DNA of 64,000 nt, taken from a virus. The position numbers and the translations under genes were made by a program. The stretch covers positions 45,614 to 109,613 of IMG/VR virus record IMGVR_UViG_3300037319_000172, one strand, 5' to 3'. The notes under the pieces were generated by a model that saw nothing but the letters and a program-made list of their open reading frames with translations, had not been told where the DNA came from and made no database searches. This document shows, piece after piece, positions 20,727-64,000 of the stretch; position 1 is the stretch's first letter, and every line of letters begins with the position of its first letter.

Positions 20727-21320
20727 TTATTTATAATGTCCTCCACCTAACCAAAGAACGAATGATTTTCTAATACCCTTAGTTACGGGTCTAACTGAAT
20801 GAACTAGATAACTTGGAAATAATACGACAGTACCTTTTCCTCTTGGAGCAATAAGATTATTAGTATTTAGGCTTTCTCCTCCCATCCAGAAACAAAGGTC
20901 TCCTCCTTCGTATTCGCTTGAATCAGATAACTGAACTGTTATTGATATTTTTCTAACAGACATACTATCGTTTCCAACATCTTGATGCCAGTCATATTTC
21001 CCTAGTTCGTCAGCATTGTATTCAGTATATTGTATTAATTCAGGGGCTGAAGTTGCATCAAATTTCCACATTGTGTCATTCGCTTCGCTAGCGAATACTA
21101 TTAGTTTTTCGTACAACCAATTCCACTCTGTAGTTTGTGGAATCCATTTTATATTTGATTTACGATCAGGTGTTATTCCTCCATCTGTCACTGCTCTGAC
21201 GTAATCTAGATTATTAACGCCGTCTTCAATCCATCTTAATTCCTCAGATGTGAATCCTTTATCAAACCAATAATAGTCCACTGCTTTGTTTTGATTAGGT
21301 TCGAATATATTACTTCTCAT
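20727..21320 (-). CDS. 2OG-Fe(II) oxygenase (PKHD / prolyl-hydroxylase-like)
   Basis: Y.WHQD, RKIS..VQLS...YEGG.L, FPS...H.V.PVT.G.RKS.V.W. Confidence 0.9.
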   Translation of the reverse strand: MRSNIFEPNQNKAVDYYWFDKGFTSEELRWIEDGVNNLDYVRAVTDGGITPDRKSNIKWIPQTTEWNWLYEKLIVFASEANDTMWKFDATSAPELIQYTEYNADELGKYDWHQDVGNDSMSVRKISITVQLSDSSEYEGGDLCFWMGGESLNTNNLIAPRGKGTVVLFPSYLVHSVRPVTKGIRKSFVLWLGGGHYK

Positions 21321-23196
21321 TTTCGTTATATGTTATATTAACTATTCCTTCTTCTTCACCATACCTTGATTCTGTATTTATAGGATAGCTTGGATTCTCT
21401 TCATATGCCCAGTCATGTTGTCCTAACTCTTCAAATCTTAATTTTATCTTTTCGTTATAATACATTGATATAGTTCGGGTTCTTCTTTGAATATCTGCTC
21501 TAGATAAATCATGAGTGTTCCTGTGCCCTGCATTACTATATAGAAATTGAATGTAACTTAGTTTAGGTATCTTACACATTAATGTATGTAAAAAGGTTCT
21601 AACGATTAATTCATAATCATCAACAACTGTTAAACTTCTGTTATGTCCTCCTATTTCGAAATATGTAGTTCTTCTCCATGCTCTAATGTGATTAGGCACT
21701 CCAACAATATGTCTTATTGTTTTAGGATTGATATTCTGTTGATTAGCAGGTGATAACATTCTACCTTGATATTCTTCATCTCTATAGTTACCGTATCCTA
21801 ATGCAAATCCAGGTTCGTATTTATGATTCTCCCATTGTTCATTTACTTCTGCAGTATCTCCGTAAAAGAATCCGCATTCAGGATGTTTTTGTGCTGCCTT
21901 GTGTAAATCTTCAGCACATGTTTCCGCTAATAGATCGTCATGATCTAGTTCTGCAAGAATATATCCTTTAGCCATTACATTAGATCTCCATTTAACTTCT
22001 CCAATAACTCCACCTGATTTTTCTCTAAAGTCATACACTCTAACTCTTGGATCGTTTTTCGCAATCTCTTCAGCTATTTTTAGTGTTTTACCTCCATCAG
22101 TAGAATCATTCATTAATATCCATTCCCAGTTTCCATAAGATTGTCTAGCAACTGATTCGTATGTGTTCCATAACTTATCTCCTGTATTATAAATAGGAGT
22201 AGTAAATGATATTAAGCTCTGATCATTTAAATTAGTAGGATCTAACATCGCGTTTTCTGAAACACTATATGCGATATCACCAACTAGGTTCATGTCTCCG
22301 TCATCATCTATGTTTATCCACTTTCTTCTAAATTGAAGAGGTAAACTGCAAAGTGTAGGAAATGAATCAGAACTTTCTCCTCTAGTAACTATAGAGTCTG
22401 GTTTAAATTCAGAAATAACTTTACTTATATTATCATCATTTTTAACATACATTACTGTTAAATTATTATCTTCATAATCCAATACCTTTGATGTCTTTAA
22501 CTGAGGTCTTCCTTCACCGACATACAACACTCTTGGTAGTTTAGGAGTTGACTCCTTTTGTAATTTATTATAGTGTGAAAGTATTTCATCTATCCAAACG
22601 AAGCGACTCGGGTGATCCTTGTAAACTTCATCAATAAAGAATCCGTCTGCTGCATAATCTGCAGTGAATCCATATTCATCAAAAAGATCTCCTCTTAATA
22701 ATACTTGAGCGATATCTGTTTTCTGATAACCTGTATTTTGTGGAGTTGCTTCCCTATATTTTAATCCTGTAAAATCTTTACCATTGACATCTTGTCCGAC
22801 AACAATCATTACTTTATCTGAATTACTAGGAATCGTTAAATGTTCTTCTATTCTTTGATAAAAATCGGAATGCATTATATTATCATCATCTAGTAAATAA
22901 AACCAACCAGATCCTCGAGTAACCATATCGGATTCGTGTGAAACTATATGTCTTATTAAGTCAGTAGTTTCAGGATACATCATCCCTCCTTTTTTACCTT
23001 TGATAAAATGTATTGTTGTATTTTCTTGATCTAATTCTGCAAGTACCTCTGCGTCAATATCCTTAAGCGATCCTGTATCAAACATGATGTGCCAATGGAT
23101 ATCTACATTTGCTGTTTTAGAATTATCAAAAACTGTAGGTTTGATTTTTAAAAGATTAGACGTACGGGTACACCTTGTTATTACATTAATTTTCAT
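21310..23196 (-). CDS. Tandem GT-A (GT2) glycosyltransferase
   Basis: Two GT-A domains (YLLDDDN; TPIYN..SV.RQ...WEW...ND.STD, ELDHDD, DDYEL). Confidence 0.85.
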   Translation of the reverse strand: MKINVITRCTRTSNLLKIKPTVFDNSKTANVDIHWHIMFDTGSLKDIDAEVLAELDQENTTIHFIKGKKGGMMYPETTDLIRHIVSHESDMVTRGSGWFYLLDDDNIMHSDFYQRIEEHLTIPSNSDKVMIVVGQDVNGKDFTGLKYREATPQNTGYQKTDIAQVLLRGDLFDEYGFTADYAADGFFIDEVYKDHPSRFVWIDEILSHYNKLQKESTPKLPRVLYVGEGRPQLKTSKVLDYEDNNLTVMYVKNDDNISKVISEFKPDSIVTRGESSDSFPTLCSLPLQFRRKWINIDDDGDMNLVGDIAYSVSENAMLDPTNLNDQSLISFTTPIYNTGDKLWNTYESVARQSYGNWEWILMNDSTDGGKTLKIAEEIAKNDPRVRVYDFREKSGGVIGEVKWRSNVMAKGYILAELDHDDLLAETCAEDLHKAAQKHPECGFFYGDTAEVNEQWENHKYEPGFALGYGNYRDEEYQGRMLSPANQQNINPKTIRHIVGVPNHIRAWRRTTYFEIGGHNRSLTVVDDYELIVRTFLHTLMCKIPKLSYIQFLYSNAGHRNTHDLSRADIQRRTRTISMYYNEKIKLRFEELGQHDWAYEENPSYPINTESRYGEEEGIVNITYNENEK

Positions 23197-23206
23197 TTAG
23201 TATGGT

Positions 23207-24145
23207 TTATTGTTGTATGTCAAAAAAGAACATGTGAAAAAATCGTGAGTTATCTATTGCGTCTCCGAAGTATTCGGTTGCTGCGTGTATCTGTGATGAG
23301 TTGAAAATTACGAGTCTATTATATACGTTACCAATATCATCTATCTTTTCAAATAGAGTTCCATCGTAAAAGTTCATAGCTTCGTTTGTTCCTTTAAATG
23401 TGTGAAAGTATTCATCTCCCATTCTAGATTCCTGTCCTGGAAAAGAATTTATACCTGTTACTTTACTTCGGTACATTGATGTTCCAGTAGGTGCAGGTGC
23501 GTTTGGTGTTAAGTATACCATTGCGGCATACATTTGAGAATCTACATGATAAACAATAGGCTGATCAGCAGTACAATATTGAAATACACCATTAGCGTAT
23601 CCTACATTGTTCCAGTTTGTTATCTTTCTACCTAATATTTCTTCTAACTTTTCTTTAGTTCCATCTAGTATAAATCTAGAATTTGATCTCTGTCCTTTAT
23701 GATAATCCGATGGAGTGTATTCAAGGTTTTGCATCGCATATTCTCTAACAAGATCTGGATCTGCATAGAAATTATCTACAACAATGACATCTTTATCTGT
23801 TGGGTTAAACCCTGATGAAACAGCTGCCCATTTTCCTATAGAAACAAACTCTTCAGGTTCTTCACCATTAAAACTTATTCTTAATTTAGAATTTATTAAA
23901 TGTTTGGGAATAGATATGTTGAATCCAGTGCAAAAGTCTAAAGATCCTTCATAGTATCTAGATACATCTATCCTAGGTTCCCATTCTATTTTTAATTTAA
24001 TATCTTCTATTAATAAATCTATAAAGTTAATTTTTCTATCGCTGTTTGTAGAACCTATCCAACCTCTTACATTCCATGTTGAATCTAATCCTTCAGATAC
24101 TTCATCAACATTAAGTAATATATTTTTAATATTAGTAGTATGCAT
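23207..24145 (-). CDS. 2OG-Fe(II) oxygenase-like protein (DUF6445-like) with N-terminal accessory domain
   Basis: VVDNFY.DPD.VREYA, HVD, VYLTP, GT, YNRLVIF....HAA..YFG...R....FF. Confidence 0.75.
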   Translation of the reverse strand: MHTTNIKNILLNVDEVSEGLDSTWNVRGWIGSTNSDRKINFIDLLIEDIKLKIEWEPRIDVSRYYEGSLDFCTGFNISIPKHLINSKLRISFNGEEPEEFVSIGKWAAVSSGFNPTDKDVIVVDNFYADPDLVREYAMQNLEYTPSDYHKGQRSNSRFILDGTKEKLEEILGRKITNWNNVGYANGVFQYCTADQPIVYHVDSQMYAAMVYLTPNAPAPTGTSMYRSKVTGINSFPGQESRMGDEYFHTFKGTNEAMNFYDGTLFEKIDDIGNVYNRLVIFNSSQIHAATEYFGDAIDNSRFFHMFFFDIQQ

Positions 24146-24197: not shown

Positions 24198-24229
24198 AAA
24201 AAAAAGGATCCCATTTCTGAGATCCTTTT
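24198..24229 (-). terminator. Intrinsic terminator after collagen genes
   Basis: aaaaggatc..gatcc-ttttttt stem-loop. Confidence 0.7.
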
Positions 24230-24255: not shown

Positions 24256-27219
24256 TTAGAAACGTCCTCTACCTCCACCTCCACCTGGTCCTGAGCTTAT
24301 TTCTTCTTTTCTGTTGTGTGTTACTATTCCGTTTGCTATATAAACGTCATCGTTTTCAACATCCAATCTCCATACTCTCTGATGTACTCCTTCAAATAAA
24401 GGACTCATTGTAATCGTATCGACTACGATTTTACTAAATGAATCTTTAAGTAATAAGAAATCTCCCTGTAGTAGTTCAGATGTTTTTAAAGTTCGCCATT
24501 CACCATTTCTCTCTGCAATATGTAAATGGTCTGCTGAAGCTTCTATTATTCCATTAATATTGTATGAATACATTACTAGTATTTCAACGTTAGAAGTTAC
24601 TGTTGATTCTGAAAATGTAGCGTTTAATTCGCTTGATCTCCATTCTTTTAAAACAGCATATTCATCTGAATCAGGCATGGTGTCTATATGTACTGATTTT
24701 ACGATATTTCCTACTTCTACATTTTCTATACTTTTAAAAGAACCATCATTCATTTCAATTTGTGTTCCTTCTATTAAACAGCCGGGTCCGCCTCCTGTAT
24801 TTATTATAGAAGTTACTAATCCATTAGATAATCCGATAAAAATATTACTAGTACTAAAACTCCTATCTGAATCTGAACCTCCAGACAAAGTACGTCCTCT
24901 ATATCCTTGAGGTCCTCTTGAATTATAATTCCCATTATTTCCTCTGTAACCTTGAGCTCCTCTTGGTCCACCATTTCCTTGAGCTCCTCTTGGACCTTTA
25001 TATCCACCGGGTCCATTATTACCTTTTGTACCTTGAGCTCCTTGAGCTCCTCTAGCAGCAACTCCGTAATTTGTACCTTGTGATCCTTTTGGTCCTTTAG
25101 GTCCTTGATTTCCTGTTAATCCCTTTACGGTAGATGTTGTTCCTTGAGATCCTTGAGGACCTTGAGGACCCGTTGAACCTGTATTTCCTTGAAATCCTCT
25201 TGGCATAGCACCTTGAGCTCCTTGAGCTCCTTGATATCCTTTATATCCTTTATATCCTCTATCATAAAAACCACTAAAACCTTGAGGTCCAGTAAGTCCT
25301 TTATTACCTTGAGCTCCTCTTTGCTTAGCTCCAATAGCTCCTGTAGGTCCTGCTTCTCCTTTCACTCCTGTAGGTCCTCGGTTAGTAGCTCCTTCGAATC
25401 CATCAGCTCCTCCATCTCCTACAGTTCCTTTATCTCCTCTTGGATTATTACCTTGAGATCCTTTATATCCTCCATCTCCTTTAAGACCTTGAGATCCTCT
25501 TGGAAAAGCACCTTGATATCCAGTAGGACCTGCGTCTCCTAGAGCTCCTTGAGGCCCTACTGGTGAATCTCCAGTATTACCTTGAGATCCTTGAGTTCCT
25601 TGAGTTCCTCTAAGTCCTTGTGGATCATCTCCTATATGTCCTTGAGCTCCTTTAGTTCCTTGATTTCCTTTAGTTCCTTGCGGTTCGTATCCTGGATTTC
25701 CCTTAGATGCTTGAGTTCCTTGAACTCCTCTATCTCCTCTTGGATTGTATCCTTGATATCCACCAGGACCTCCGTTTCCTTGAGCTCCTTGATCTCCTCT
25801 AGGTGTTGCTCCTTGTGCTCCTTTATATCCTTGATCTCCTTGAAAACCTTCATATCCTTTAGGACTTGCTCCTTTTGATCCTTTTAATCCTTGATCTCCT
25901 TTAGGACCTGCTGGTGATACGGGTGTACTACCTTGATTTCCTTGAGCTCCTTTATTTCCTTGATGACCTCTATGTCCTGTTGGATTTGCTCCTTTAAATC
26001 CTCTATCTCCCTGGTTTCCTTGAAAACCTTCATATCCTGTAGGACTTGCTCCACCAGTTCCTTGATTTCCTTGAGTTCCTTTATCTCCTTCATATCCTGT
26101 AGGTTCTGCTCCTGGTAAACCATTTTGTCCTGTAGCTCCTTTATCTCCTTTGAATCCTGTTAAACGATCTCCTTGTGATCCTTTATTTCCTTTATCTCCT
26201 TTGAATCCTTTATAACCTTTAATACTATCTCCTTGATTTCCTTGATTTCCTATAAAACCAGTATCACCTGATATTGCTGGATTTGTTGATCCTTGAGAAC
26301 CTTTAGGTCCATCAGGTCCATCCTCTCCTTTAATTCCTTTAGGGCTTGCTCCAGTAGTTCCTTTAAATCCTAATTCACCACTTTCACCTTTAAGTCCTAT
26401 TGGTGAAGCTCCTTTATTTCCAGTATCTCCTTGTGCACCGTCTGGTCCAGAATCTGGAGACAATGTAATACCTTGATCTCCTCTAAAACCCTGAGCTCCT
26501 TGATTTCCTTGATTTCCTTTTATATTATCACCAATAGCACCTTGATTTCCTTGAGCTCCTCTATCTCCTTCAGGTCCTGTTGGACTATCTCCATCAGCTC
26601 CTTTATCTCCATTAGGGCCATCATCTCCTTTAGCTGCAGTATCTGTAGCTCCTTGAGGTCCTCTTGGTCCCTCAGTTCCTTTATCTCCTTTATAACTAGT
26701 AATTAGATTACCGTCTAATCCCTTATGGCCTTGATCTCCAATAGATCCTATAGCTGCTTCTTCTGTTTTACCTTTAGAACCTTGAGCTCCCTTAGATCCC
26801 TTAGATCCTTGTTCACCCTGTGGACTAAATCCATCATCTCCTTGGAATCCAGTAGGACCTTGAGGCTCATCACCATCAATTCCTAAAAGACCTTGACTAC
26901 CTTGAAAACCAACTTCCCCTTCAAAGCCTTCATCTCCTATTGGATTATCTCCCTGTATTCCACGCTCTCCTTCAATACCTGTAGGTTCTTCACCTTCTAA
27001 TCCTTGATCTCCTTTTAACCCTTGATTTCCTTGATTTCCTTGATCTCCTTTTAACCCTTGATTTCCTTGATCTCCTTGGAATCCTTGATCTCCAGTTAAT
27101 CCTTGATCTCCTTGAAATCCTTGATCTCCTATAAATTCTGAGTAAGCATTTTTATCGAAATTACCGACATGTAGAGGAGTTTCTCCCCCTACTGTCGATC
27201 CTGTTCTTAACTTTGCCAT
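24256..27219 (-). CDS. Collagen-like fibre protein with C-terminal Hint (BIL-type) domain
   Basis: Gly-X-Y from aa 31 to ~775 with periodic interruptions; CLIEGT...SADH...Y.ANGIVTHN. Confidence 0.88.
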   Translation of the reverse strand: MAKLRTGSTVGGETPLHVGNFDKNAYSEFIGDQGFQGDQGLTGDQGFQGDQGNQGLKGDQGNQGNQGLKGDQGLEGEEPTGIEGERGIQGDNPIGDEGFEGEVGFQGSQGLLGIDGDEPQGPTGFQGDDGFSPQGEQGSKGSKGAQGSKGKTEEAAIGSIGDQGHKGLDGNLITSYKGDKGTEGPRGPQGATDTAAKGDDGPNGDKGADGDSPTGPEGDRGAQGNQGAIGDNIKGNQGNQGAQGFRGDQGITLSPDSGPDGAQGDTGNKGASPIGLKGESGELGFKGTTGASPKGIKGEDGPDGPKGSQGSTNPAISGDTGFIGNQGNQGDSIKGYKGFKGDKGNKGSQGDRLTGFKGDKGATGQNGLPGAEPTGYEGDKGTQGNQGTGGASPTGYEGFQGNQGDRGFKGANPTGHRGHQGNKGAQGNQGSTPVSPAGPKGDQGLKGSKGASPKGYEGFQGDQGYKGAQGATPRGDQGAQGNGGPGGYQGYNPRGDRGVQGTQASKGNPGYEPQGTKGNQGTKGAQGHIGDDPQGLRGTQGTQGSQGNTGDSPVGPQGALGDAGPTGYQGAFPRGSQGLKGDGGYKGSQGNNPRGDKGTVGDGGADGFEGATNRGPTGVKGEAGPTGAIGAKQRGAQGNKGLTGPQGFSGFYDRGYKGYKGYQGAQGAQGAMPRGFQGNTGSTGPQGPQGSQGTTSTVKGLTGNQGPKGPKGSQGTNYGVAARGAQGAQGTKGNNGPGGYKGPRGAQGNGGPRGAQGYRGNNGNYNSRGPQGYRGRTLSGGSDSDRSFSTSNIFIGLSNGLVTSIINTGGGPGCLIEGTQIEMNDGSFKSIENVEVGNIVKSVHIDTMPDSDEYAVLKEWRSSELNATFSESTVTSNVEILVMYSYNINGIIEASADHLHIAERNGEWRTLKTSELLQGDFLLLKDSFSKIVVDTITMSPLFEGVHQRVWRLDVENDDVYIANGIVTHNRKEEISSGPGGGGGRGRF

Positions 27220-27262
27220 TTGTATTATTTGTTTATTTTTATATTATTATATTTAAAGTAGC

Positions 27263-29785
27263 TTAACTATGATTCTTAGTAGTAATAAATCCATTGACTA
27301 CCTGTAAAACGTTATTAGAGTTATCTCTGAATTGACCGTTAAATCCAGTACCAGCACTAGTACTTCCATTAGGTCCTTTATATCCTTGAGGTCCTACTCC
27401 GTATCCTGAACCAGAAGATCCCTGTGGTCCAGTCGATGCTCCTCCTTTATATCCTTGATCTCCTTTTGGACCAGTAGATGCTACATTTCCATAGACTCCT
27501 TGAGGTCCTTTATATCCTTTTGGCCCTTTTGATCCTGAATTACCTTTAGCACCCTTATCACCTTGAGGTCCATTAGTACCTTGATTACCTTTAGGTCCGC
27601 TTGTTCCTTGATGTCCCTGATAACCTTGCGTTCCTTGGGCTCCTTGGGCTCCGTAATAACCAGCGCTTCCTTGAGATCCTGTTCTACCAATTCGTCCTTT
27701 ATTACCTTGATCTCCTTGAACACCAGGACCGCCTGAAGATGCTTGTGTTCCCTTTGCACCTGTGTTCCCTTTTAATCCCCTGTGTCCTTTATCAATTCCT
27801 CCTTGATTAACTCCTTTAACTCCTTGATCTCCTTGAGCTCCTTGATATCCTGTTGGAGAAGTATTACCATCTGCACCAACTCCACCTTGAGCTCCTCGAT
27901 CTCCTTGAACACCTCGTAGTCCATTAGAACCCTTAGCCCCTTCATCTCCTTTATTTCCTTTGAATCCTTGATATCCTTGAGGTCCTGTTAGACCTTTAGC
28001 TCCTTTAGAACCTTGAGTTCCTTGGAATCCTTTGGGCCCCTTTGATCCGGTACCTCCTTTAAGTCCTTTATCTCCTTTAAATCCTTGATATCCTCTATCT
28101 CCGACTTCTCCTTTTACTCCGTCAGGTCCTTTAACTCCTGTAAGTCCTTTAAAACCTTGAGATCCTTGATTTCCTTGTGAACCAGGCTCTCCTTTAAGTC
28201 CTATAGGACCATCATACCCTTGATATCCTTGAGGTCCATCATCACCTGTATCTCCTTTACTTCCTTGAGTTCCTCGAAATCCTTCATGTCCTTTACTTCC
28301 TTTAACATTCGATTCACCGGTAAACCCTTTAAATCCTAGATCTCCTTCATTTCCAATGACTCCTTGTACTCCCTCATCTCCTTTAAATCCTTTATCTCCT
28401 TTAGATCCTTGATTACCCTGAGATCCTGTAGCTCCAATACGTCCTTTATCTCCGTCTAGTCCTTTATAACCTTGTGATCCTTCTGCACCTTGATCTCCAT
28501 CATATCCTTTTAGTCCTTTAAATCCTTGATCTCCTGTATTACCAGTAGAACCTTGATTTCCAGTTGCTCCTTTATATCCAGTGTTTCCTTGATCTCCCTT
28601 AACTCCTTTAACTCCTTGATCTCCAGCAGTTCCTTTTGATCCTTGATTTCCTTGATCTCCGTCTAGTCCTGTATTTCCTTTAGATCCTTGGTCTCCTTTA
28701 TCTCCTTTTAAACCAGTATCTCCTTTATCTCCAGTTGCTCCCGTACTAGCGTTGAATCCTTTAAGACCTTGAGACCCTTTTGATCCTTTTGATCCTTGAT
28801 TTCCATCAGATCCTTTAAATCCTAAATCACCGTTATCTCCTTGATCTCCAATATTACCTTGATTTCCTTTAGAACCTGTAGTACCTTGATTTCCTTGATT
28901 TCCTTTATTTCCTTGAGATCCTTGATTACCTTTATCTCCGATAACCCCTTGAAAACCTTTTAAACCATTAGAACCTTGAGGTCCTTGTGATCCATCAGTT
29001 CCTTGATATCCTGTATCACCTTTAAATCCTTTAAATCCAGATTCACCTGCTGCAGAAGGAGATGCTGTATCTCCAATATTACCTTTGAATCCTTGATCTC
29101 CCTTTGATCCTTGATTTCCTTGAATACCGATAACACCCTGAGATCCTTTATTACCTTGATCACCTTGAGTACCTTGAGTACCTGCAGATCCTGTATATCC
29201 TTGAGTACCTTGATCTCCTTGATCTCCTTTTAATCCTTGATCTCCAGTTGCTTGTTTGTTTCCTTGAAAACCTCGAAGACCTTGATCTCCTTTAGTTCCT
29301 TGAGGTCCTTCATTACCTTGAAAACCTCGATCTCCTTGATCTCCAGTTCCTCCGCTAGATCCTGTATCTCCAGTATTTCCTTTAACTCCTTGATCTCCTT
29401 TAATACCAACTTCTCCTTGATTTCCGGTTTGGCCCTGAGTTCCTTGATCTCCAACTTCTCCTTGATCTCCTTTAATACCAACTTCTCCTTGGTTTCCTTT
29501 ATCTCCAATATTACCTTGATTTCCAAAAAGACCTTGATCTCCTTGATTACCATTAGTTCCTTGTTGTCCTTGTACTCCTTTATCTCCGTCAAATCCTTGA
29601 TCTCCTTTAGTTCCTTGATCACCATTATCTCCGATATCACCTAAAGCCCCTTGAGAACCTTGGCTTCCTAAGAAACCAGGTTCTCCCTGTGGTCCAACAA
29701 ATTCGGGAAAATCAGTACTATTTAGGTTCCCACTATGTAACACTGTGTTACTATCAAGTGTAGTTCCTAATATAAATTTAGCCAT
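27263..29785 (-). CDS. Collagen-like fibre protein
   Basis: Gly-X-Y from aa 31 to ~809. Confidence 0.88.
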   Translation of the reverse strand: MAKFILGTTLDSNTVLHSGNLNSTDFPEFVGPQGEPGFLGSQGSQGALGDIGDNGDQGTKGDQGFDGDKGVQGQQGTNGNQGDQGLFGNQGNIGDKGNQGEVGIKGDQGEVGDQGTQGQTGNQGEVGIKGDQGVKGNTGDTGSSGGTGDQGDRGFQGNEGPQGTKGDQGLRGFQGNKQATGDQGLKGDQGDQGTQGYTGSAGTQGTQGDQGNKGSQGVIGIQGNQGSKGDQGFKGNIGDTASPSAAGESGFKGFKGDTGYQGTDGSQGPQGSNGLKGFQGVIGDKGNQGSQGNKGNQGNQGTTGSKGNQGNIGDQGDNGDLGFKGSDGNQGSKGSKGSQGLKGFNASTGATGDKGDTGLKGDKGDQGSKGNTGLDGDQGNQGSKGTAGDQGVKGVKGDQGNTGYKGATGNQGSTGNTGDQGFKGLKGYDGDQGAEGSQGYKGLDGDKGRIGATGSQGNQGSKGDKGFKGDEGVQGVIGNEGDLGFKGFTGESNVKGSKGHEGFRGTQGSKGDTGDDGPQGYQGYDGPIGLKGEPGSQGNQGSQGFKGLTGVKGPDGVKGEVGDRGYQGFKGDKGLKGGTGSKGPKGFQGTQGSKGAKGLTGPQGYQGFKGNKGDEGAKGSNGLRGVQGDRGAQGGVGADGNTSPTGYQGAQGDQGVKGVNQGGIDKGHRGLKGNTGAKGTQASSGGPGVQGDQGNKGRIGRTGSQGSAGYYGAQGAQGTQGYQGHQGTSGPKGNQGTNGPQGDKGAKGNSGSKGPKGYKGPQGVYGNVASTGPKGDQGYKGGASTGPQGSSGSGYGVGPQGYKGPNGSTSAGTGFNGQFRDNSNNVLQVVNGFITTKNHS

Positions 29786-29837
29786 AATTGTTTATTTTAT
29801 TTTTATATGTTATGTTATATATTTTAAATATATGTGT

Positions 29838-32591
29838 CTATTTAAACATTCCTCCAGATATTCTATCAGATGAAGAACTGTCTGAATTAACCGAACCTTG
29901 ATATCCTCCTGTTCCATGATTTCCTTGATAACCTCTAGGTCCTCCAGTTCCATTACTTCCTTGAGCTCCTTTTAATCCTTGAGCTCCTTGCGTTCCATTA
30001 GGTCCTTTATATCCTACAGCACCTTGAGGTCCTCTTCCTCTATGAGCACCTGTCGTACCTTTATCACCGTTATCTCCCTGTGATCCGGCAGTACCAGCGG
30101 TTCCTGTAAATCCTTTTACTAAAGCTCCGACATGTCCTTTAGATCCTTGAGGTCCTGTAGCTCCTTTTAATCCTTTTCTCCCGGTATATCCTGTTAAAGT
30201 ACTATTAGTTCCTTTAACTCCTTGGTTACCTTGAGTTCCTTGATTTCCAGTTGCTCCTTGAAATCCACGTTGTCCTTGAACTCCTTTTGTATTTATGTCT
30301 CCTTGAGGTCCTCTATCACCTTGATATCCTTGATCTCCTTTATGTATACTCAAAGGATTTGGACCTGTATTTCCAGTTTGGCCCTGCATTCCTCTAAATC
30401 CTTGAGCTCCTTGAGATCCGTTAGGTGAAACAGTTCCCTGAGATCCTCTAAATCCTATATCTCCTTTGTATCCTTTATCTCCTTTACCTCCAACAGTTCC
30501 TTGATCTCCTTGATCTCCTCTTTGTCCTTTTAATCCATCAGGACCAGAAGCTCCTACAGTACCTTGGTGTCCTCTATATCCGTCAAAACCTTTATCTCCA
30601 CCTCCACCTGTTGCACCTGTTGCGCCTTTATCTCCTGTTGGTCCTTTATAACCATTAGTTCCTTTATCTCCGACAGGGCCTGCAGTACCTTGAGATCCTT
30701 GAGATCCGACAAAACCTATAAATCCTTTATCTCCTCTAGCTCCTTGATCTCCAGTTGGTCCTTGAATAGTGCCAATAATTCCTTTGAATCCTTGATCTCC
30801 TTTAGTTCCAGTATTACCTTGGAATCCTCTGTATCCCGCATCTCCTTTAGTTCCTATGTCTCCTTGAGTACCTACAGTACCTTGAGATCCTTGAGATCCT
30901 CTAGATCCTTTAGAACCTTGATCTCCTCGATCTCCTGAAGTACCTTGATCTCCTTGAGTTCCTTGTAGTCCTTTAAATCCTGTTGGTCCAGCAATACCGG
31001 TAGTTCCGGTAGTTCCAATATTTCCTGTTAATCCTTTGTCTCCTTGAAATCCTCTATCACCTACAGTTCCTTGATCTCCTTGAGTTCCTTTTCTATTAGT
31101 TAATGTAGTTGCATTTACTCCTTGATTACCTCTGGGTCCAGTATCTCCATTAGGTCCTACAAGACCTTTATCTCCTTTATCTCCTTGAAATCCTCTTGCT
31201 CCAGTATTTCCTTGAGATCCTCTATATCCTGATCCTGTTGATGATGTTGATTGATTAATTCCTTGATTACCTTGAACTCCAGTTGCTCCTTTGTCTCCAG
31301 TTGCTCCTTTATTTCCTTTGTCTCCTTGAACTCCTCTAACACTATCATTACCATCAGATCCCTTATCTCCTTTATCTCCTTGAGATCCTTTATCACCCTG
31401 AACTCCCAATGATCCTTGAGTTCCTTGAGTTCCAATAAGACCATCAGATCCTTTATCACCCTGAGCTCCTGTTACACCGATAAATCCGTCATCACCTTTA
31501 GTTCCTTTAAATCCTTGATCTCCAATAGATCCATTAACTCCTTGAGAACCAATTTCTCCTTTATCTCCTTGAAATCCATTGTCTCCTTTAAGACCTTCTA
31601 ATCCTTGATCTCCTTTAGTTCCTTGTTGTCCAATGTTTCCTGTTGTTCCAATAGTATCATCTTGTCCTTTAGTACCTGTCGATCCTTTGTCTCCAACGAA
31701 TCCTTGATCTCCAATAGAACCAGTTACTCCTTCTTCACCTTGATCTCCTTTACGTCCTCTAAATCCTTCAAATCCTTGATTACCTTTAGTACCGACTCTA
31801 CCTTGAAAACCAGGTTCACCATCAATACCTTGAGGTCCTCTATCACTATCTAGTCCTTTATGTCCTTGATCTCCTCTATCACCTTGATCTCCTTGATCTC
31901 CTATAGTACCATCAAATCCTTTACTACCAACTCCTCCACCGGATCCAGAACCTCCTTGTGCTCCTGTATCTCCAATAGCACCTTGATCTCCTTGATTTCC
32001 TTGGTCTCCTATTGGACCTGCAATACCTTCAGCGCCATTCTCTCCTTTAACACCTTGATCTCCTTTAATTCCTTGATCTCCTTTTTCTCCGATATTTCCA
32101 GTTTCACCTTGATGTCCTCTAGTTCCTTGATCTCCAATAGGACCTATAGATCCTTGAAAACCAGGATCTCCTTTTAATCCTATAAATCCAGGTTCACCTT
32201 GATCTCCGTCATGTCCTACAACTCCTTCATTTCCTTTATCTCCTTCAAAACCTTTATCACCAGTAGGTCCTTGAACTCCTTTATCTCCTTTTAAAGAAGG
32301 AAAGTTATTAGGTTCAAAGTTATTTGGTGTTAGTATTTGGTTATTATTAATTGTCGAATCCGACTTTAATATACCAATACCGTCAAACGTACTGTTAGAT
32401 ATAATAGCGTTGTCGCTTTTTCTAAAAGATAATACGTCTCCAGAAGGAAACGTATTTAGCTCTTGAAAATAAGATGGTGTATGAACAATATTAGTACCTT
32501 TATCGATACCAGATCTTCCAGACGTTTCGTCTAGATTAGCTTGGAATTCACCAGTAGTTTGTACCAGTTTTATCGCTATGTTATTTGCCAT
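29838..32591 (-). CDS. Collagen-like fibre protein
   Basis: Gly-X-Y from aa 102 to ~901. Confidence 0.88.
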   Translation of the reverse strand: MANNIAIKLVQTTGEFQANLDETSGRSGIDKGTNIVHTPSYFQELNTFPSGDVLSFRKSDNAIISNSTFDGIGILKSDSTINNNQILTPNNFEPNNFPSLKGDKGVQGPTGDKGFEGDKGNEGVVGHDGDQGEPGFIGLKGDPGFQGSIGPIGDQGTRGHQGETGNIGEKGDQGIKGDQGVKGENGAEGIAGPIGDQGNQGDQGAIGDTGAQGGSGSGGGVGSKGFDGTIGDQGDQGDRGDQGHKGLDSDRGPQGIDGEPGFQGRVGTKGNQGFEGFRGRKGDQGEEGVTGSIGDQGFVGDKGSTGTKGQDDTIGTTGNIGQQGTKGDQGLEGLKGDNGFQGDKGEIGSQGVNGSIGDQGFKGTKGDDGFIGVTGAQGDKGSDGLIGTQGTQGSLGVQGDKGSQGDKGDKGSDGNDSVRGVQGDKGNKGATGDKGATGVQGNQGINQSTSSTGSGYRGSQGNTGARGFQGDKGDKGLVGPNGDTGPRGNQGVNATTLTNRKGTQGDQGTVGDRGFQGDKGLTGNIGTTGTTGIAGPTGFKGLQGTQGDQGTSGDRGDQGSKGSRGSQGSQGTVGTQGDIGTKGDAGYRGFQGNTGTKGDQGFKGIIGTIQGPTGDQGARGDKGFIGFVGSQGSQGTAGPVGDKGTNGYKGPTGDKGATGATGGGGDKGFDGYRGHQGTVGASGPDGLKGQRGDQGDQGTVGGKGDKGYKGDIGFRGSQGTVSPNGSQGAQGFRGMQGQTGNTGPNPLSIHKGDQGYQGDRGPQGDINTKGVQGQRGFQGATGNQGTQGNQGVKGTNSTLTGYTGRKGLKGATGPQGSKGHVGALVKGFTGTAGTAGSQGDNGDKGTTGAHRGRGPQGAVGYKGPNGTQGAQGLKGAQGSNGTGGPRGYQGNHGTGGYQGSVNSDSSSSDRISGGMFK

Positions 32592-32625: not shown

Positions 32626-33168
32626 TTATATAAACGTAAAGTTTACATCTCCATTAGAGCTTCTATCTATTTTGAAATCGACAACACCATTAGTATCTTC
32701 GAATTCAATAGATTTACCATCTGCTATTGTTACTGACTCTCCATCAAATTCTCCTGTATCTCCTTTAGTTCCTTTTTCACCTTGGAAACCTTGATCTCCT
32801 TTAAAACCTTGATCTCCTTTAGTTCCAACTTCTCCTTGGAATCCTTGATCTCCTTGATCTCCTTGAAAACCTTGATCTCCTTTAGTTCCTTTTTCACCTT
32901 GATCTCCTTGATCTCCTTTAGTTCCTTTTTCACCTTGATCTCCTTGAAAACCTTGATCTCCTTTAATTCCTTTTTCACCTTGAAAACCTTGAAAACCTTG
33001 ATCTCCAACTTCTCCTTGGAATCCTTGGTCTCCTGTTTCACCTTTTAATCCTTGGTCTCCTTTAGTTCCTTTTTCACCTTGAAAACCTTGATCTCCAGTA
33101 TTACCTTGATGTCCTGCCCCTTGGTCTCCTTGAGGACCTGCGGTAGAAATATATGCTGAATATGCCAT
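32626..33168 (-). CDS. Short collagen-like protein
   Basis: ~40 GDQ/GFQ/GEK/GTK triplets plus small beta-rich C-terminus. Confidence 0.85.
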   Translation of the reverse strand: MAYSAYISTAGPQGDQGAGHQGNTGDQGFQGEKGTKGDQGLKGETGDQGFQGEVGDQGFQGFQGEKGIKGDQGFQGDQGEKGTKGDQGDQGEKGTKGDQGFQGDQGDQGFQGEVGTKGDQGFKGDQGFQGEKGTKGDTGEFDGESVTIADGKSIEFEDTNGVVDFKIDRSSNGDVNFTFI

Positions 33169-34085: not shown

Positions 34086-34676
34086 ATGATACATACTTTA
34101 ATGAATAACAATACTAAGAAAATAGTAAGAGATTACATATACTTTACTGAAACATTAGATGATGTTAAATCAACTTCTCAAGCTGCCGAGGGTCAATTCC
34201 GTAGTGCGATGAGTAAACACAATGAACCTGCACTTGAAGCACTATCACCTCCTAAGGGTACTCCTCCTATTAGTAAAATAGAGGATGAAGAGCATGTTAA
34301 ATTCGAAGATAAAAACTTTAAAAAGCTTTTTAGAAAATTAGTAGTTAAATGCCATCCAGATAAATTAGATGATTCCTATTCTGAAACAGAAGGAATGTTC
34401 TTAAAAGAATGTTATGAAAATTTAACTAAAAGTAATCAAACATATGATTGGGGAATGCTATTAAGAGTGTCAATTGATTTAAAAGTGGATGTACCTGATT
34501 TAAGCGATGAAAACTTAAAAAACATTATCGATAACATAGAATCTATTAAGAATAACATTAGTAAATTTGAAGGATCCATGGCATATAAATGGTATACCCT
34601 TCCTGATGAAAATGAAAAGAAAGGGTATTTAGAAAATTGTGCTAAAATATTTATGTTTAGTTTAAGTAAGCGTTAA
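34086..34676 (+). CDS. J-domain protein
   Basis: FKKLFRKLVVKCHPDK; only plus-strand gene in this block. Confidence 0.7.
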   Translation: MIHTLMNNNTKKIVRDYIYFTETLDDVKSTSQAAEGQFRSAMSKHNEPALEALSPPKGTPPISKIEDEEHVKFEDKNFKKLFRKLVVKCHPDKLDDSYSETEGMFLKECYENLTKSNQTYDWGMLLRVSIDLKVDVPDLSDENLKNIIDNIESIKNNISKFEGSMAYKWYTLPDENEKKGYLENCAKIFMFSLSKR

Positions 34677-35452
34677 ACATCCCATACTCCATTCATATGA
34701 CATCTAACATATGTCGGTTGAGAATATAGTGCGCCGTTCTTATATCTACCTTGTACTTCCTTTATAAAGAAAATATCTTCAGAAATACTACTAGAAATAA
34801 CGTCCTGCCATTTGTTTGATATATTACTGACATGCATGAATAACCACGGAGCCATTATCTGTCTACCTTTTGCAAATTGCATTGGTTTCCAAGTTTCTGG
34901 TAATCCTGCAAGTTCTACACTTTCAATAGTATTAGGATCTATTATACCAGTTAAATTCTTTTCTGTTCCAGTAACTCGGCTGTTATCATACCAAGATCCA
35001 TTAATCCACCATGTCTTTTCAGGTTCTGCGTTATATTCTAATAATGCTGACATAGTATGATTAGGCATTATGTAATCGTCTGAATCCATATAAGTTATAA
35101 GAGATCCGGTTGATGCTGCTATTCCAAGTTGCCTAGCTGCTCCTCTATAGTAGGTTCCTTCTTCCATTTCTTCATACATTTTTGGAGTATTAGATCTGTC
35201 ATAATATACAAATTTAATATTAGCATTTTCTTTATGAGATCTATTATATAGCTGGTGCGTCTTGTTACATCCGTCTGCTACTATAATCAATTCACAATTT
35301 TTATAAATTTGGTTGTTAAAACTTTCAACTGCCCTATGAAATTTATTAATAGAATCTTCTCTTGCTCCTGGATATTTTTCCAGATTAACTTGCATTATTA
35401 TTGATATTTTAACTTTATCTAAAGCTTCGTATATTTCTTTAAAATCGTTCAT
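34673..35452 (-). CDS. GT2-family glycosyltransferase
   Basis: RAVESF..Q....ELIIVADG, ARQLG, YMDSDD, ED. Confidence 0.8.
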   Translation of the reverse strand: MNDFKEIYEALDKVKISIIMQVNLEKYPGAREDSINKFHRAVESFNNQIYKNCELIIVADGCNKTHQLYNRSHKENANIKFVYYDRSNTPKMYEEMEEGTYYRGAARQLGIAASTGSLITYMDSDDYIMPNHTMSALLEYNAEPEKTWWINGSWYDNSRVTGTEKNLTGIIDPNTIESVELAGLPETWKPMQFAKGRQIMAPWLFMHVSNISNKWQDVISSSISEDIFFIKEVQGRYKNGALYSQPTYVRCHMNGVWDV

Positions 35453-36648
35453 TATTTATATAAGTTTGTTTTCCAATTATATTCGTATGACAACTCATGT
35501 TTATTTGGATTAAATAAGTTGTCTATAAGTTTTTTATATGTATCAACCAATTCAGGGTTAGTTGACGTATATCTATTTAGTATTGGTTTGTTTTTTTCAA
35601 TGTATTCTTCAATGTTTTTATCATGATCCTGCAATGCAATTTTAAGTTGCTCAGCGCCTTTTGTTATATTAAATCCTTCATAATAATATCCTCCATCCTT
35701 AATCATGTCTGCATTATGAACAAGTGGGTACCCGTAGTACATTGCGTCTAAATATGCATAGTTTAATGGGTTTTCCCATTGGTGTGAAATGACAATATCG
35801 GTTTCACTTGAAAGGAACGTTGAAATAGGATATCTACCTACAAATTTTATTTTATTATCGCTTGAATTAACTATATCGAAATGCTTAATCATATCAAGAT
35901 AGTATTTATTTGTAATAAGCTTTTTACCTGAACCTATAAATATTTGCTTGAATGAAGCTTCACCTAAATCTCTAAATATCTTTTCAGCAATCATGATTGG
36001 TATTAATGAATATTTTACAACATTCAAATTAGGTTCCATTACTGATAGCTTCTTTTTATGCTGAGCCTTTGGTGTATACTTAGGAGTTTTCTTTCCGGCT
36101 TTTGTTAGTAATTTATCAAAATCATCTAAAGGTTCTGGATCCCAAACAAAAGGAACGATATGTACTTGTGAATCGTTCTGTCTATATATAGTCTTATAAT
36201 ATTCTAAGTTCTGATATTCTTGTTGAGGTATAATCCAAGTTGCGTCATGTCCGCTATCCCATGAAGGCTTCTCTCCTTCACTTGCTTTATCAAATAATAC
36301 TCTTTCCATATCTACAACATAACTATTGCCGCATTGATATTTTACTATTTTTATATTTGGATTAGATTCTTTAATCTTTTTTATTCTACTAGTAGGCAAT
36401 GAAGATCCTATCATGAATAACAAATCTAATTTGTTTTCCATGTCTATAAATTTAGCTATTTTATATTTACTATAATCCCAATTTACTTTGGTTAAATCAT
36501 CAACTGCAGTCCCAGTGTCTAATATGTAAACATCTAGCCCTTCGATCTGGCCTAGCATTTTTGATAAATTCAAAGCATTTAGTTTAATACCATTGATCCA
36601 CATGCTTTCGTATTCGGTATTTAGCGATATTGATATTCCTACTTTCAT
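35452..36648 (-). CDS. DUF2827-like putative glycosyltransferase
   Basis: W.NGI..N, CGN.Y, VPFVWDP, MEPN.NVVK...P, SHQWENPLNY.Y.D....YPLVHN. Confidence 0.7.
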   Translation of the reverse strand: MKVGISISLNTEYESMWINGIKLNALNLSKMLGQIEGLDVYILDTGTAVDDLTKVNWDYSKYKIAKFIDMENKLDLLFMIGSSLPTSRIKKIKESNPNIKIVKYQCGNSYVVDMERVLFDKASEGEKPSWDSGHDATWIIPQQEYQNLEYYKTIYRQNDSQVHIVPFVWDPEPLDDFDKLLTKAGKKTPKYTPKAQHKKKLSVMEPNLNVVKYSLIPIMIAEKIFRDLGEASFKQIFIGSGKKLITNKYYLDMIKHFDIVNSSDNKIKFVGRYPISTFLSSETDIVISHQWENPLNYAYLDAMYYGYPLVHNADMIKDGGYYYEGFNITKGAEQLKIALQDHDKNIEEYIEKNKPILNRYTSTNPELVDTYKKLIDNLFNPNKHELSYEYNWKTNLYK

Positions 36649-45610: not shown

Positions 45611-45817
45611 TTAATTGCTATAATGATCCCATTTATGTTTTCCACACTTACAAGTAGCATGTGATCCTTCTAATGAAACAAAACCAGTACATATCTTCGG
45701 TGTTATTCTGTCTATATTTTCGTTTGCAGAAATAAGCATCTCTATTAGTTGATACTTTTCCATAGTATCATACATTTTTACTTTTTCCTCATAAGTCATA
45801 TTTACAGTATGGTACAT
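45611..45817 (-). CDS. Small hypothetical protein
   Basis: 68 aa, C..F......CKCGKH..DH; AAAC-N17-TATAAT upstream. Confidence 0.6.
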   Translation of the reverse strand: MYHTVNMTYEEKVKMYDTMEKYQLIEMLISANENIDRITPKICTGFVSLEGSHATCKCGKHKWDHYSN

Positions 45818-63140: not shown

Positions 63141-64000
63141 TTACATTTGATTACTACAACTGTCATGTATTAACGTAAGAGTAACACTGTATCCACTAGC
63201 ACCCGTAAGAGTACCGCTTTTATATCTTATACCATATATATTCTCTTCATTAATTCCAACATTACCTATGTTTGCAGAATATATCATAGTATTTGCAGCA
63301 TGTGTGTATGTGTGTATCACTGTAGTATTTCCATTTTTAGCTCTAGTATAGACTTCTATTACGACAGCACTTGTACTTCTATTGGCACCATATGTTGCGT
63401 ATATTCTAGTTACATTATATTTATCAAAATCAGCCCCGTTAGGAATTATAACATAAGCATTTGATAGTTTTGATGCTAAAACGTTAGAGCCATAAGCTAC
63501 TGGGTTAAGTGTAATATAATCGTAGCATGTCCCTGTTCCAGTAGATCCTTTTATTCCTTTATCACCTTGAGCTCCTTTATCTCCTTTACCGCCTTTTAAT
63601 CCTTGATGTCCTTGGGCTCCTTTTTCACCTTGAGCTCCTACTTTTCCTTGAGCTCCTATTTCTCCTTTTAATCCTTGAGCTCCTTTTTTACCTTGATCTC
63701 CTATTTTACCTTGATGTCCTTGATCTCCTATTTCACCTTGATGTCCTTGAGCTCCTTTTTCACCTTGATCTCCTTGGGCTCCTATTTTACCTTGATGCCC
63801 TTGAGCTCCTTTTAATCCTTGATGTCCTATTTCACCTTGATGTCCTTGAGCTCCTTTTTCACCTTGATCTCCTTGATCTCCTATTTTACCTTGATGTCCT
63901 TGATCTCCTATTTTACCTTGATCTCCTATTTTACCTTGATGTCCTTGATCTCCTACTTTTCCTTGATCTCCTTGAGCTCCTTTTAATCCTTGAGCTCCTT
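63141..64000 (-). CDS. Collagen-like fibre protein, partial (5' end outside window)
   Basis: GAQ/GDQ/GHQ/GKI triplets, then ~130-aa globular C-terminus; TAA at 63141-63143. Confidence 0.85.
   Translation of the reverse strand, partial: GAQGLKGAQGDQGKVGDQGHQGKIGDQGKIGDQGHQGKIGDQGDQGEKGAQGHQGEIGHQGLKGAQGHQGKIGAQGDQGEKGAQGHQGEIGDQGHQGKIGDQGKKGAQGLKGEIGAQGKVGAQGEKGAQGHQGLKGGKGDKGAQGDKGIKGSTGTGTCYDYITLNPVAYGSNVLASKLSNAYVIIPNGADFDKYNVTRIYATYGANRSTSAVVIEVYTRAKNGNTTVIHTYTHAANTMIYSANIGNVGINEENIYGIRYKSGTLTGASGYSVTLTLIHDSCSNQM

Follow-up and report, generated by a model that had tools for sequence, protein, structure and literature searches.

Animal collagens such as complement C1q (A, B and C chains) and collagen IV are ABC heterotrimers, in which three different chains are wound into one triple helix. 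Among viruses, Mimivirus encodes collagens together with the L230 hydroxylase/glycosyltransferase, and to our knowledge neither a heterotrimer nor a shared lattice has been described for these proteins. Collagen-like proteins of bacteria and prophages, such as Scl1/2, BclA and EPcl from an Escherichia coli prophage, are described as homotrimers that are encoded by single genes and carry their own trimerisation domains (PMC8968730, PMC3368898). ABC heterotrimers have been designed from collagen-mimetic peptides using axial Lys-Asp/Glu and cation-pi pairs (PMC7824840; bioRxiv 10.1101/2024.05.21.595195), and a 2025 review of heterotrimeric collagens mentions no bacteria, viruses or phages (PMC12562938). 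Here we analyze a 64,000-nucleotide stretch of viral DNA (the window; positions 45,614 to 109,613 of IMG/VR virus record IMGVR_UViG_3300037319_000172), in which three tandem genes on the minus strand encode long collagens. We consider it probable, at roughly 0.8, that the products of genes C, B and A are the three strands of one heterotrimeric collagen helix.

The source record comprises 109.6 kb of an uncultured marine phage (completeness by CheckV, 35%). The letters of the genes follow the order of their discovery. Gene C (29838-32591) encodes 917 residues, gene B (27263-29785) 840 residues and gene A (24256-27219) 987 residues, and all three proteins match the Pfam family Collagen, PF01391 (E values of 1.3e-55, 1.7e-109 and 1.4e-107; cut-off 27.2 bits). 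Chain A consists of a 30-residue pre-helix segment (27130-27219), a helix at residues 31-777 (747 residues; 24889-27129) with 34 interruptions, and 210 non-collagen residues. In chain B, the 30-residue pre-helix segment (29696-29785) is followed by a helix at residues 31-809 (779 residues; 27359-29695) with 10 interruptions and by a 31-residue tail. Chain C begins with 101 pre-helix residues, made up of a 71-residue extension (32379-32591) and the 30-residue segment (32289-32378), and continues with a helix at residues 102-901 (800 residues; 29889-32288) with 12 interruptions and a 16-residue tail. These helices agree with the Gly-X-Y spans of ~745, ~779 and ~800 residues listed in an initial annotation of this DNA, which had also raised the possibility of a three-chain heterotrimer.

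The same annotation had aligned the pre-helix segments without gaps, and the alignment holds. The strings directly before and at the first helix Gly (residues 2-31 of A, 2-31 of B and 73-102 of C) have 13 of 31 identities between A and B, 8 of 31 between A and C and 7 of 31 between B and C, each with p <= 5e-5 in shuffles. The tails of all three chains finish in a similar short motif, x-N-G-hydrophobic. The N-terminal extension is found on C only and the large C-terminal domain, within the 210-residue post-helix part, on A only, as had been stated.

Relatives were gathered from viral and metagenome collections using a neighbouring glycosyltransferase as a non-repetitive handle, which gave ~60 loci. 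The order D-C-B-A, where D is a further collagen gene immediately upstream of the trio (32626-33168, minus strand; 180 residues in the window and not length-matched), is found upstream of the same oxygenase and glycosyltransferase genes in ~13 non-redundant lineages, mostly marine. In each lineage the chain types can be recognised by their own pre-helix segments, which are conserved per chain type. More distant relatives carry a D-type collagen only. Based on in-register comparison of the X and Y positions, paralogues within one genome are at background identity and orthologues are 26-69% identical. The background identity between paralogues indicates that A, B and C have not been homogenised by gene conversion, which we ruled out. 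BLASTP of B against C was dominated by Gly and uninformative, and the in-register comparisons were used instead.

The interruptions of chain A are strictly periodic, one per 20 residues in units of the form GxxPx(Gxx)5, a periodicity that the initial annotation had missed. We mapped the three chains onto a lattice of axial levels with its origin at the first Gly; interruptions with a length of 2 mod 3 were each scored as one skipped level, and those with a length of 1 mod 3 as one bulged residue. On this lattice the interruptions of chain A of the window fall at multiples of 21, from 105 to 672. The chain skips one residue at nearly every lattice point, so that 20 residues cover 21 levels. Interruptions in B and C fall on some of the lattice points of chain A: in the window, those of B are at 147, 210, 315, 462, 630 and 651, each a multiple of 21, and C is interrupted at 147, 210 and 315. 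When the interruption starts of all lineages are combined, 281 of 374 in A are at phase 0 mod 21, 73 of 94 in B are at phase 0 or 3, and 63 of 97 in C are at phase 0, 3 or 18.

The chains are also coupled in the type of interruption. In the window, interruptions of chain A lack their usual leading Pro in 7 of the 8 cases where B or C is interrupted, versus 6 of 22 elsewhere (p = 0.005), and the pooled odds ratio for non-Pro interruptions of A at breaks of B or C is 4.9. Under the first rule each 8-residue interruption of C counted as 9 levels, and the register was lost after position 345. A scan by segments gave an offset of -10 to -11, and the rule was revised to count each of these interruptions as one triplet slot. 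On the revised map the late breaks of the window are at 609, 633, 654 and 738 in C and at 612, 630, 651 and 738 in B, with non-Pro interruptions of A at 609, 630 and 651. A modest 21-residue periodicity of X/Y composition was also seen in B and C over the first 252 helix residues in all lineages (for example, Thr or Asn is favoured at Y just before a lattice point and small residues just after it); it is not relied on here.

Helix length ranges from 552 to 837 levels among the phages. Within a phage the three lattice lengths differ by no more than a few residues in 9-10 of 13 lineages, and elsewhere they are off by whole 21-level units. The A/B/C lengths are, for example, 570/573/567 in lineage L026, 696/699/693 in L024, 660/666/660 in L013, 723/729/723 in L014, 789/789/786 in L021 and 831/831/828 in L022 and L023. 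For the window they are 777/780/801 on the untuned map, with C at 789 under the revised rule for 8-residue interruptions. In raw residues chain A is always ~4-5% shorter than B. Thus, what is conserved is how many units a chain has and not how many residues. Matched lengths in relatives had been proposed as a check on the heterotrimer, and in this form the match is far stronger than expected.

Alignments of close relatives reveal three independent insertion/deletion (indel) events in which all three genes changed together. From L026 to L024, chains A, B and C differ by +120, +126 and +126 residues (6 units) at helix positions 202-213, 210 and 194, respectively. From L013 to L014, the differences are +60, +63 and +63 residues (3 units) at positions 406, 404-417 and 383-410. 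From L021 to L022, they are +40, +42 and +42 residues (2 units) at positions 230, 243 and 242; position 230 of chain A in raw residues corresponds to lattice level ~241, and the start is within 1-2 residues of the same level in all chains. In this last case each gene has a near-perfect tandem duplication of its own, unrelated sequence, and at least four independent assemblies carry the duplicated form (the L022 type). If total length were all that is constrained, indels would not be placed at the same position in three genes. A natural mismatched trio is provided by L020 (Ga0213869_10001098), in which this 2-unit duplication is found in B and C and not in A (lattice lengths 789/837/834). Such a trio represents an evolutionary intermediate or else a sign that a 12-nm mismatch is tolerated.

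In the axial Lys-Asp contact (the KGD/KGE-type pair), a tool of ABC design, the basic Y residue of one strand meets the acidic X residue of the next triplet in the strand lagging by one residue (PMC7824840; bioRxiv 10.1101/2024.05.21.595195). From the trailing to the leading strand the partner is one triplet further, and all offsets were fixed before any computation. Pair counts on the lattice were summed across 11 lineages, with 58 shifted registers as the reference. Lys/Arg to Asp/Glu pairs from B to C number 184 at shift 0, versus 83.8 ± 12.4 in the shifted registers; from C to A there are 199 at shift 0, versus 85.7 ± 12.8, and from A to B 121 at shift +1, versus 55.9 ± 9.0. These B-C, C-A and A-B signals have z scores of 7-9 at the exact stagger offsets, whereas the self pairs of A, B and C (z = 0.3, 0.6 and -0.4) and all other ordered pairs are at background.

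The three directional signals combine into one consistent cycle, with B leading, C in the middle and A trailing. Scored in single lineages, this BCA register ranks first of 27 compositions and registers in 8 of 12 and second in the other four. For the window by itself, 40 pairs are counted over the first 115 triplets on the untuned map, versus 23.9 ± 3.7 in triplet shuffles (p <= 2e-4); over the whole helix there are 75, versus 42.4 ± 4.9. Two other kinds of contact, each counted separately, follow the same register: pairs of Gln at Y with an aromatic residue at X peak at shifts -1 and 0 for B-C and C-A and at 0 and +1 for A-B (z = 8-10), and for pairs of Lys/Arg at Y with an aromatic residue at X the peaks are C-A at shift 0 (z = 6.5) and A-B at shift +1 (z = 5.4). 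The enrichment is specific to the genome, with mean z scores of 3.4, 3.75 and 2.4 for chains of the same genome and 0.2-0.6 for chains of different clades. Enrichment confined to chains of one genome indicates that the contact pairs co-evolve and do not reflect a fixed periodic pattern. Thus, the lattice, the concerted indels and the single contact register B, C, A all argue for the heterotrimer that had been proposed for these genes.

In contrast to A, B and C, collagen D has self pairs of the KGD/KGE type with z scores of 2.6-7.2 in relatives, and of 1.5 in the short copy of the window. In relatives, collagen D is uninterrupted and at least 531-725 residues long, running off the DNA (L015:3-2180, L011:1-1848, L014:1-1596).

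The best surviving alternative is that the locus encodes three separate homotrimeric fibres (AAA, BBB and CCC) of equal length, for example anchored side by side or bundled. Globular inserts that occur in one chain only would be easily accommodated by such fibres, as would the small length mismatches that are evidently tolerated. The larger number of interruptions in chain A had likewise been raised as fitting separate homotrimers; A is indeed interrupted about three times as often, but its interruptions are on the same lattice, each of them one skipped level, and separate homotrimers are not favoured by this. Separate homotrimers predict contacts within each chain type, yet none of A, B and C has self pairs above background and the signals are between chains, at the stagger offsets. 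With one residue fewer per unit, AAA would fall ~4.8% short of the length of BBB or CCC, whereas conservation is seen for the unit number, and fibres that need only equal lengths have no need for indels at the same position in three genes. Co-evolution of the contact pairs within genomes is a further argument against this alternative, and we regard it as improbable.

A second alternative is a helix of another mixed composition, such as B2C or BC2; the periodically interrupted chain A would then assemble into a homotrimer by itself. In its favour, no signal of the window is clearer than that of B-C, B and C have break positions in common, and in two lineages CAC scores slightly above BCA. The C-A and A-B (+1) signals, however, equal B-C in strength, both pooled and in most lineages. 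In addition, the unit count and the indel positions of A track those of B and C, and the type of interruption in A is coupled to the breaks of B and C. We consider a helix without A to be quite unlikely, somewhat more so than three homotrimers. Least probable of all, to the point of being nearly negligible, is that there is no physical coupling and the pattern reflects descent from one ancestral gene of 7-triplet repeats within a cassette exchanged as a block among phages: the genes are paralogous (N- and C-terminal motifs in common), their length changes are in whole repeat units and cassette exchange would carry matched sets together, but the paralogues are at background X/Y identity without gene conversion, tandem duplications of their own sequences arose independently in the three genes at the same lattice position, and the directional, genome-specific pairs between chains are left unexplained.

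Several observations weigh against a single BCA helix. With related lineages among those pooled, the combined statistics overstate significance, and the signal of the window is weaker than in several relatives. The revised rule for C was picked after the charge-pair optimum had been seen, although the break points that then coincide and the Gln-aromatic pairs back it independently. Length matching has exceptions: chain C of the window exceeds its partners by 9 levels (21 by the untuned map), chain C of L010 is one unit longer, and chain A of L020 is two units shorter. Finally, the globular inserts in B or C of relatives are without counterpart in the other two chains. In a mixed helix they would need to loop out, and three copies on a homotrimer would fit at least equally well.

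These single-chain inserts are 154-182 residues long and are found in B or C of relatives and never in A; the chains of the window have none. Most are at lattice points (252, 252, 336, 546 and 507). Carriers include L010:4206-4757, L011:5473-6036, L017, L018 and L025. One mobile module of 172-182 residues ends in a conserved motif of the YDVEF type, and a second of 154 residues has a weak match to CBM_4_9 (E = 1.3e-3), which hints at glycan binding. Searches of PHROGs and Pfam gave nothing for the 172-residue module or for the N-terminal extension of chain C.

We propose the following model for the preferred BCA helix. It would span ~780 axial levels, or ~220 nm at the axial rise of 0.286 nm per residue of the collagen helix. 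The paralogous 30-residue pre-helix segments would set a common origin, and the short x-N-G-hydrophobic tails may help. From this origin the strands would run with a fixed stagger of one residue, B leading, C in the middle and A trailing, and the register would be kept by directional pairs of Lys/Arg at Y with Asp/Glu at X, Lys/Arg at Y with an aromatic residue at X, and Gln at Y with an aromatic residue at X. On the 21-level (7-triplet) lattice, 20 residues of A would span 21 levels, and at some of the lattice points Gly is replaced in B and C, so that none of the three strands would be canonical there. Whole units, gained or lost at the same place in all three genes, would tune the length of the fibre. 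The lattice, the equal lengths on it, the joint indels and the contact statistics are properties of the sequences as they stand; physical co-assembly of the chains and a function of the fibre in adhesion are what we infer from them.

The ends of this fibre would be asymmetric, with the 71-residue N-terminal extension of C as the presumed virion anchor and, on A, a self-cleaving Hint-like domain or a Gly-rich tail. A division of labour among the chains, as the initial annotation suggested, thus holds in a descriptive sense: the N-terminal extension is confined to C, the Hint-like domain or Gly-rich tail to A, and the inserts to B or C. Because a 7/2 triple helix makes about one superhelical turn in 21 levels, the skips of chain A would face the same side and could sum to a curved or coiled fibre. 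That they all face one side and bend the fibre is speculation. The complete picture, a natural, register-locked ABC collagen outside animals with one strand skipping per 21 levels, a curved or coiled fibre of ~220 nm, matched tandem duplications, and a distal end processed or covalently attached via Hint-like thioester chemistry, is put forward tentatively, and we think it doubtful that every part of it will hold.

The Hint/intein-like domain of chain A (24313-24780, minus strand; Cys814 to His-Asn969) follows the helix and is ~156 residues long. Only the window, L017 and L010 have it in chain A; it is absent from the other lineages, in which the A orthologues terminate in a Gly/Pro-rich tail. 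The three orthologues have invariant motifs in the N-terminal Cys block (block A), in block B with its His, and in the His-Asn at the C-terminal end. Block A aligns with the PI-SceI intein (E = 0.009), and the best scores against Pfam Hom_end_hint and Intein_splicing are 15.7-17.5 bits, below the cut-offs of 32-36. The domain looks like an intein-type insertion, despite the residue at +1 after His-Asn, which is Arg in all three orthologues and not Cys, Ser or Thr. This Arg makes self-cleavage more likely than splicing. In chain A of the window the domain is followed by a Gly-rich tail of 18 residues (24259-24312, minus strand). It sits between a conserved Gly-Gly-Gly-Pro stretch and this tail, and the two are adjacent in orthologues without the domain. 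An AlphaFold2 model of the C-terminal domain of chain A, based on a 3-sequence alignment, has a mean predicted local distance difference test score (pLDDT) of 37, too low for use.

The trio resembles C1q and collagen IV in that three chains come from separate, clustered genes, have helices of equal length with interruptions at corresponding positions, and carry non-collagenous end segments that could select chains. It differs from them in its phage source, in its length of ~780 levels with almost no Pro, in the systematic deletion of one residue per 7 triplets in one chain, and in having only 30-residue and ~25-residue end segments and no trimerisation domain of the C1q or NC1 type. As in designed ABC peptides, composition and register would be set by directional axial pairs from leading to middle to trailing to leading strand, with self pairs unfavoured. 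Unlike those peptides, the natural chains are ~25 times longer, with a low density of pairs, periodic interruptions and end domains, and their register is derived statistically and not from a nuclear magnetic resonance or crystal structure. With Scl1/2, BclA and EPcl, which are surface or tail fibres, the phage chains have in common that they are low-Pro Gly-X-Y rods rich in charged and polar residues. Collagen D of the relatives, with its enriched self pairs, fits this homotrimer type, and A, B and C do not. The likeness to Mimivirus is one of gene neighbourhood, viral collagen genes adjoining genes for 2-oxoglutarate (2OG) oxygenases and glycosyltransferases.

Full-text literature searches found no phage or bacterial collagen heterotrimer. 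The mixed-chain design has so far been described for animal collagens and not for phages or bacteria, and what we present is a computational case for it. If it is true, bacterial viruses evolved the animal-type heterotrimer solution independently, and a Pro-poor trio appears to set composition and stagger by simple pairwise contacts and very short end segments. The locus would then offer a natural, recombinantly accessible template for long heterotrimeric collagens, which are now hard to obtain, and a rich comparative set (~13 lineages, 552-837 levels) for studying the co-evolution of three genes in register. A periodic deletion in one strand is an unstudied kind of interruption, and defects at Gly positions are the class of change behind human collagen diseases.

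The genes of the window, which is low in G+C, are co-directional and closely packed. A strong terminator-like hairpin with a 12-bp stem and a T run (24202-24229, minus strand) lies just downstream of gene A, and no such hairpins were found in the C-B or B-A gaps. Based on this arrangement D-C-B-A looks like one transcription unit, and the trio is probably co-transcribed. Downstream on the same strand are genes for a DUF6445 oxygenase-like protein (23207-24145), a GT2 glycosyltransferase of 628 residues (21310-23196) and a 2OG-Fe(II) oxygenase (PF13640; 20727-21320), each a candidate collagen-modifying enzyme. Upstream, also on the minus strand, are a second GT2 glycosyltransferase (34673-35452) and a DUF2827 protein (35452-36648). 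Together, the two 2OG oxygenase-type proteins, the two GT2 proteins and the DUF2827 protein form a candidate hydroxylation and glycosylation set that may modify the collagens. A small DnaJ-like gene at 34086-34676 is on the strand opposite to the collagen genes.

A tblastn search with the neighbouring glycosyltransferase against 50,697 phage records found no cultured relative closer than 36% identity. Scanning of bacterial and archaeal genome contigs gave a single 2-kb fragment and no clue to the host. The T4 major capsid family PF07068 had no match in the contig or in three related partial records, and the control genomes likewise gave none, which makes this negative uninformative.

Collagen sequence is also found away from this locus. 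A further collagen gene lies at the end of the window (63141-63998, minus strand), where it is cut by the contig end; its product has a globular C-terminal domain of ~110 residues. Outside the window (G000:C1:19418-24062), two fibre-like proteins of 753 and 775 residues each have one collagen stretch of 14 triplets near the N-terminus.

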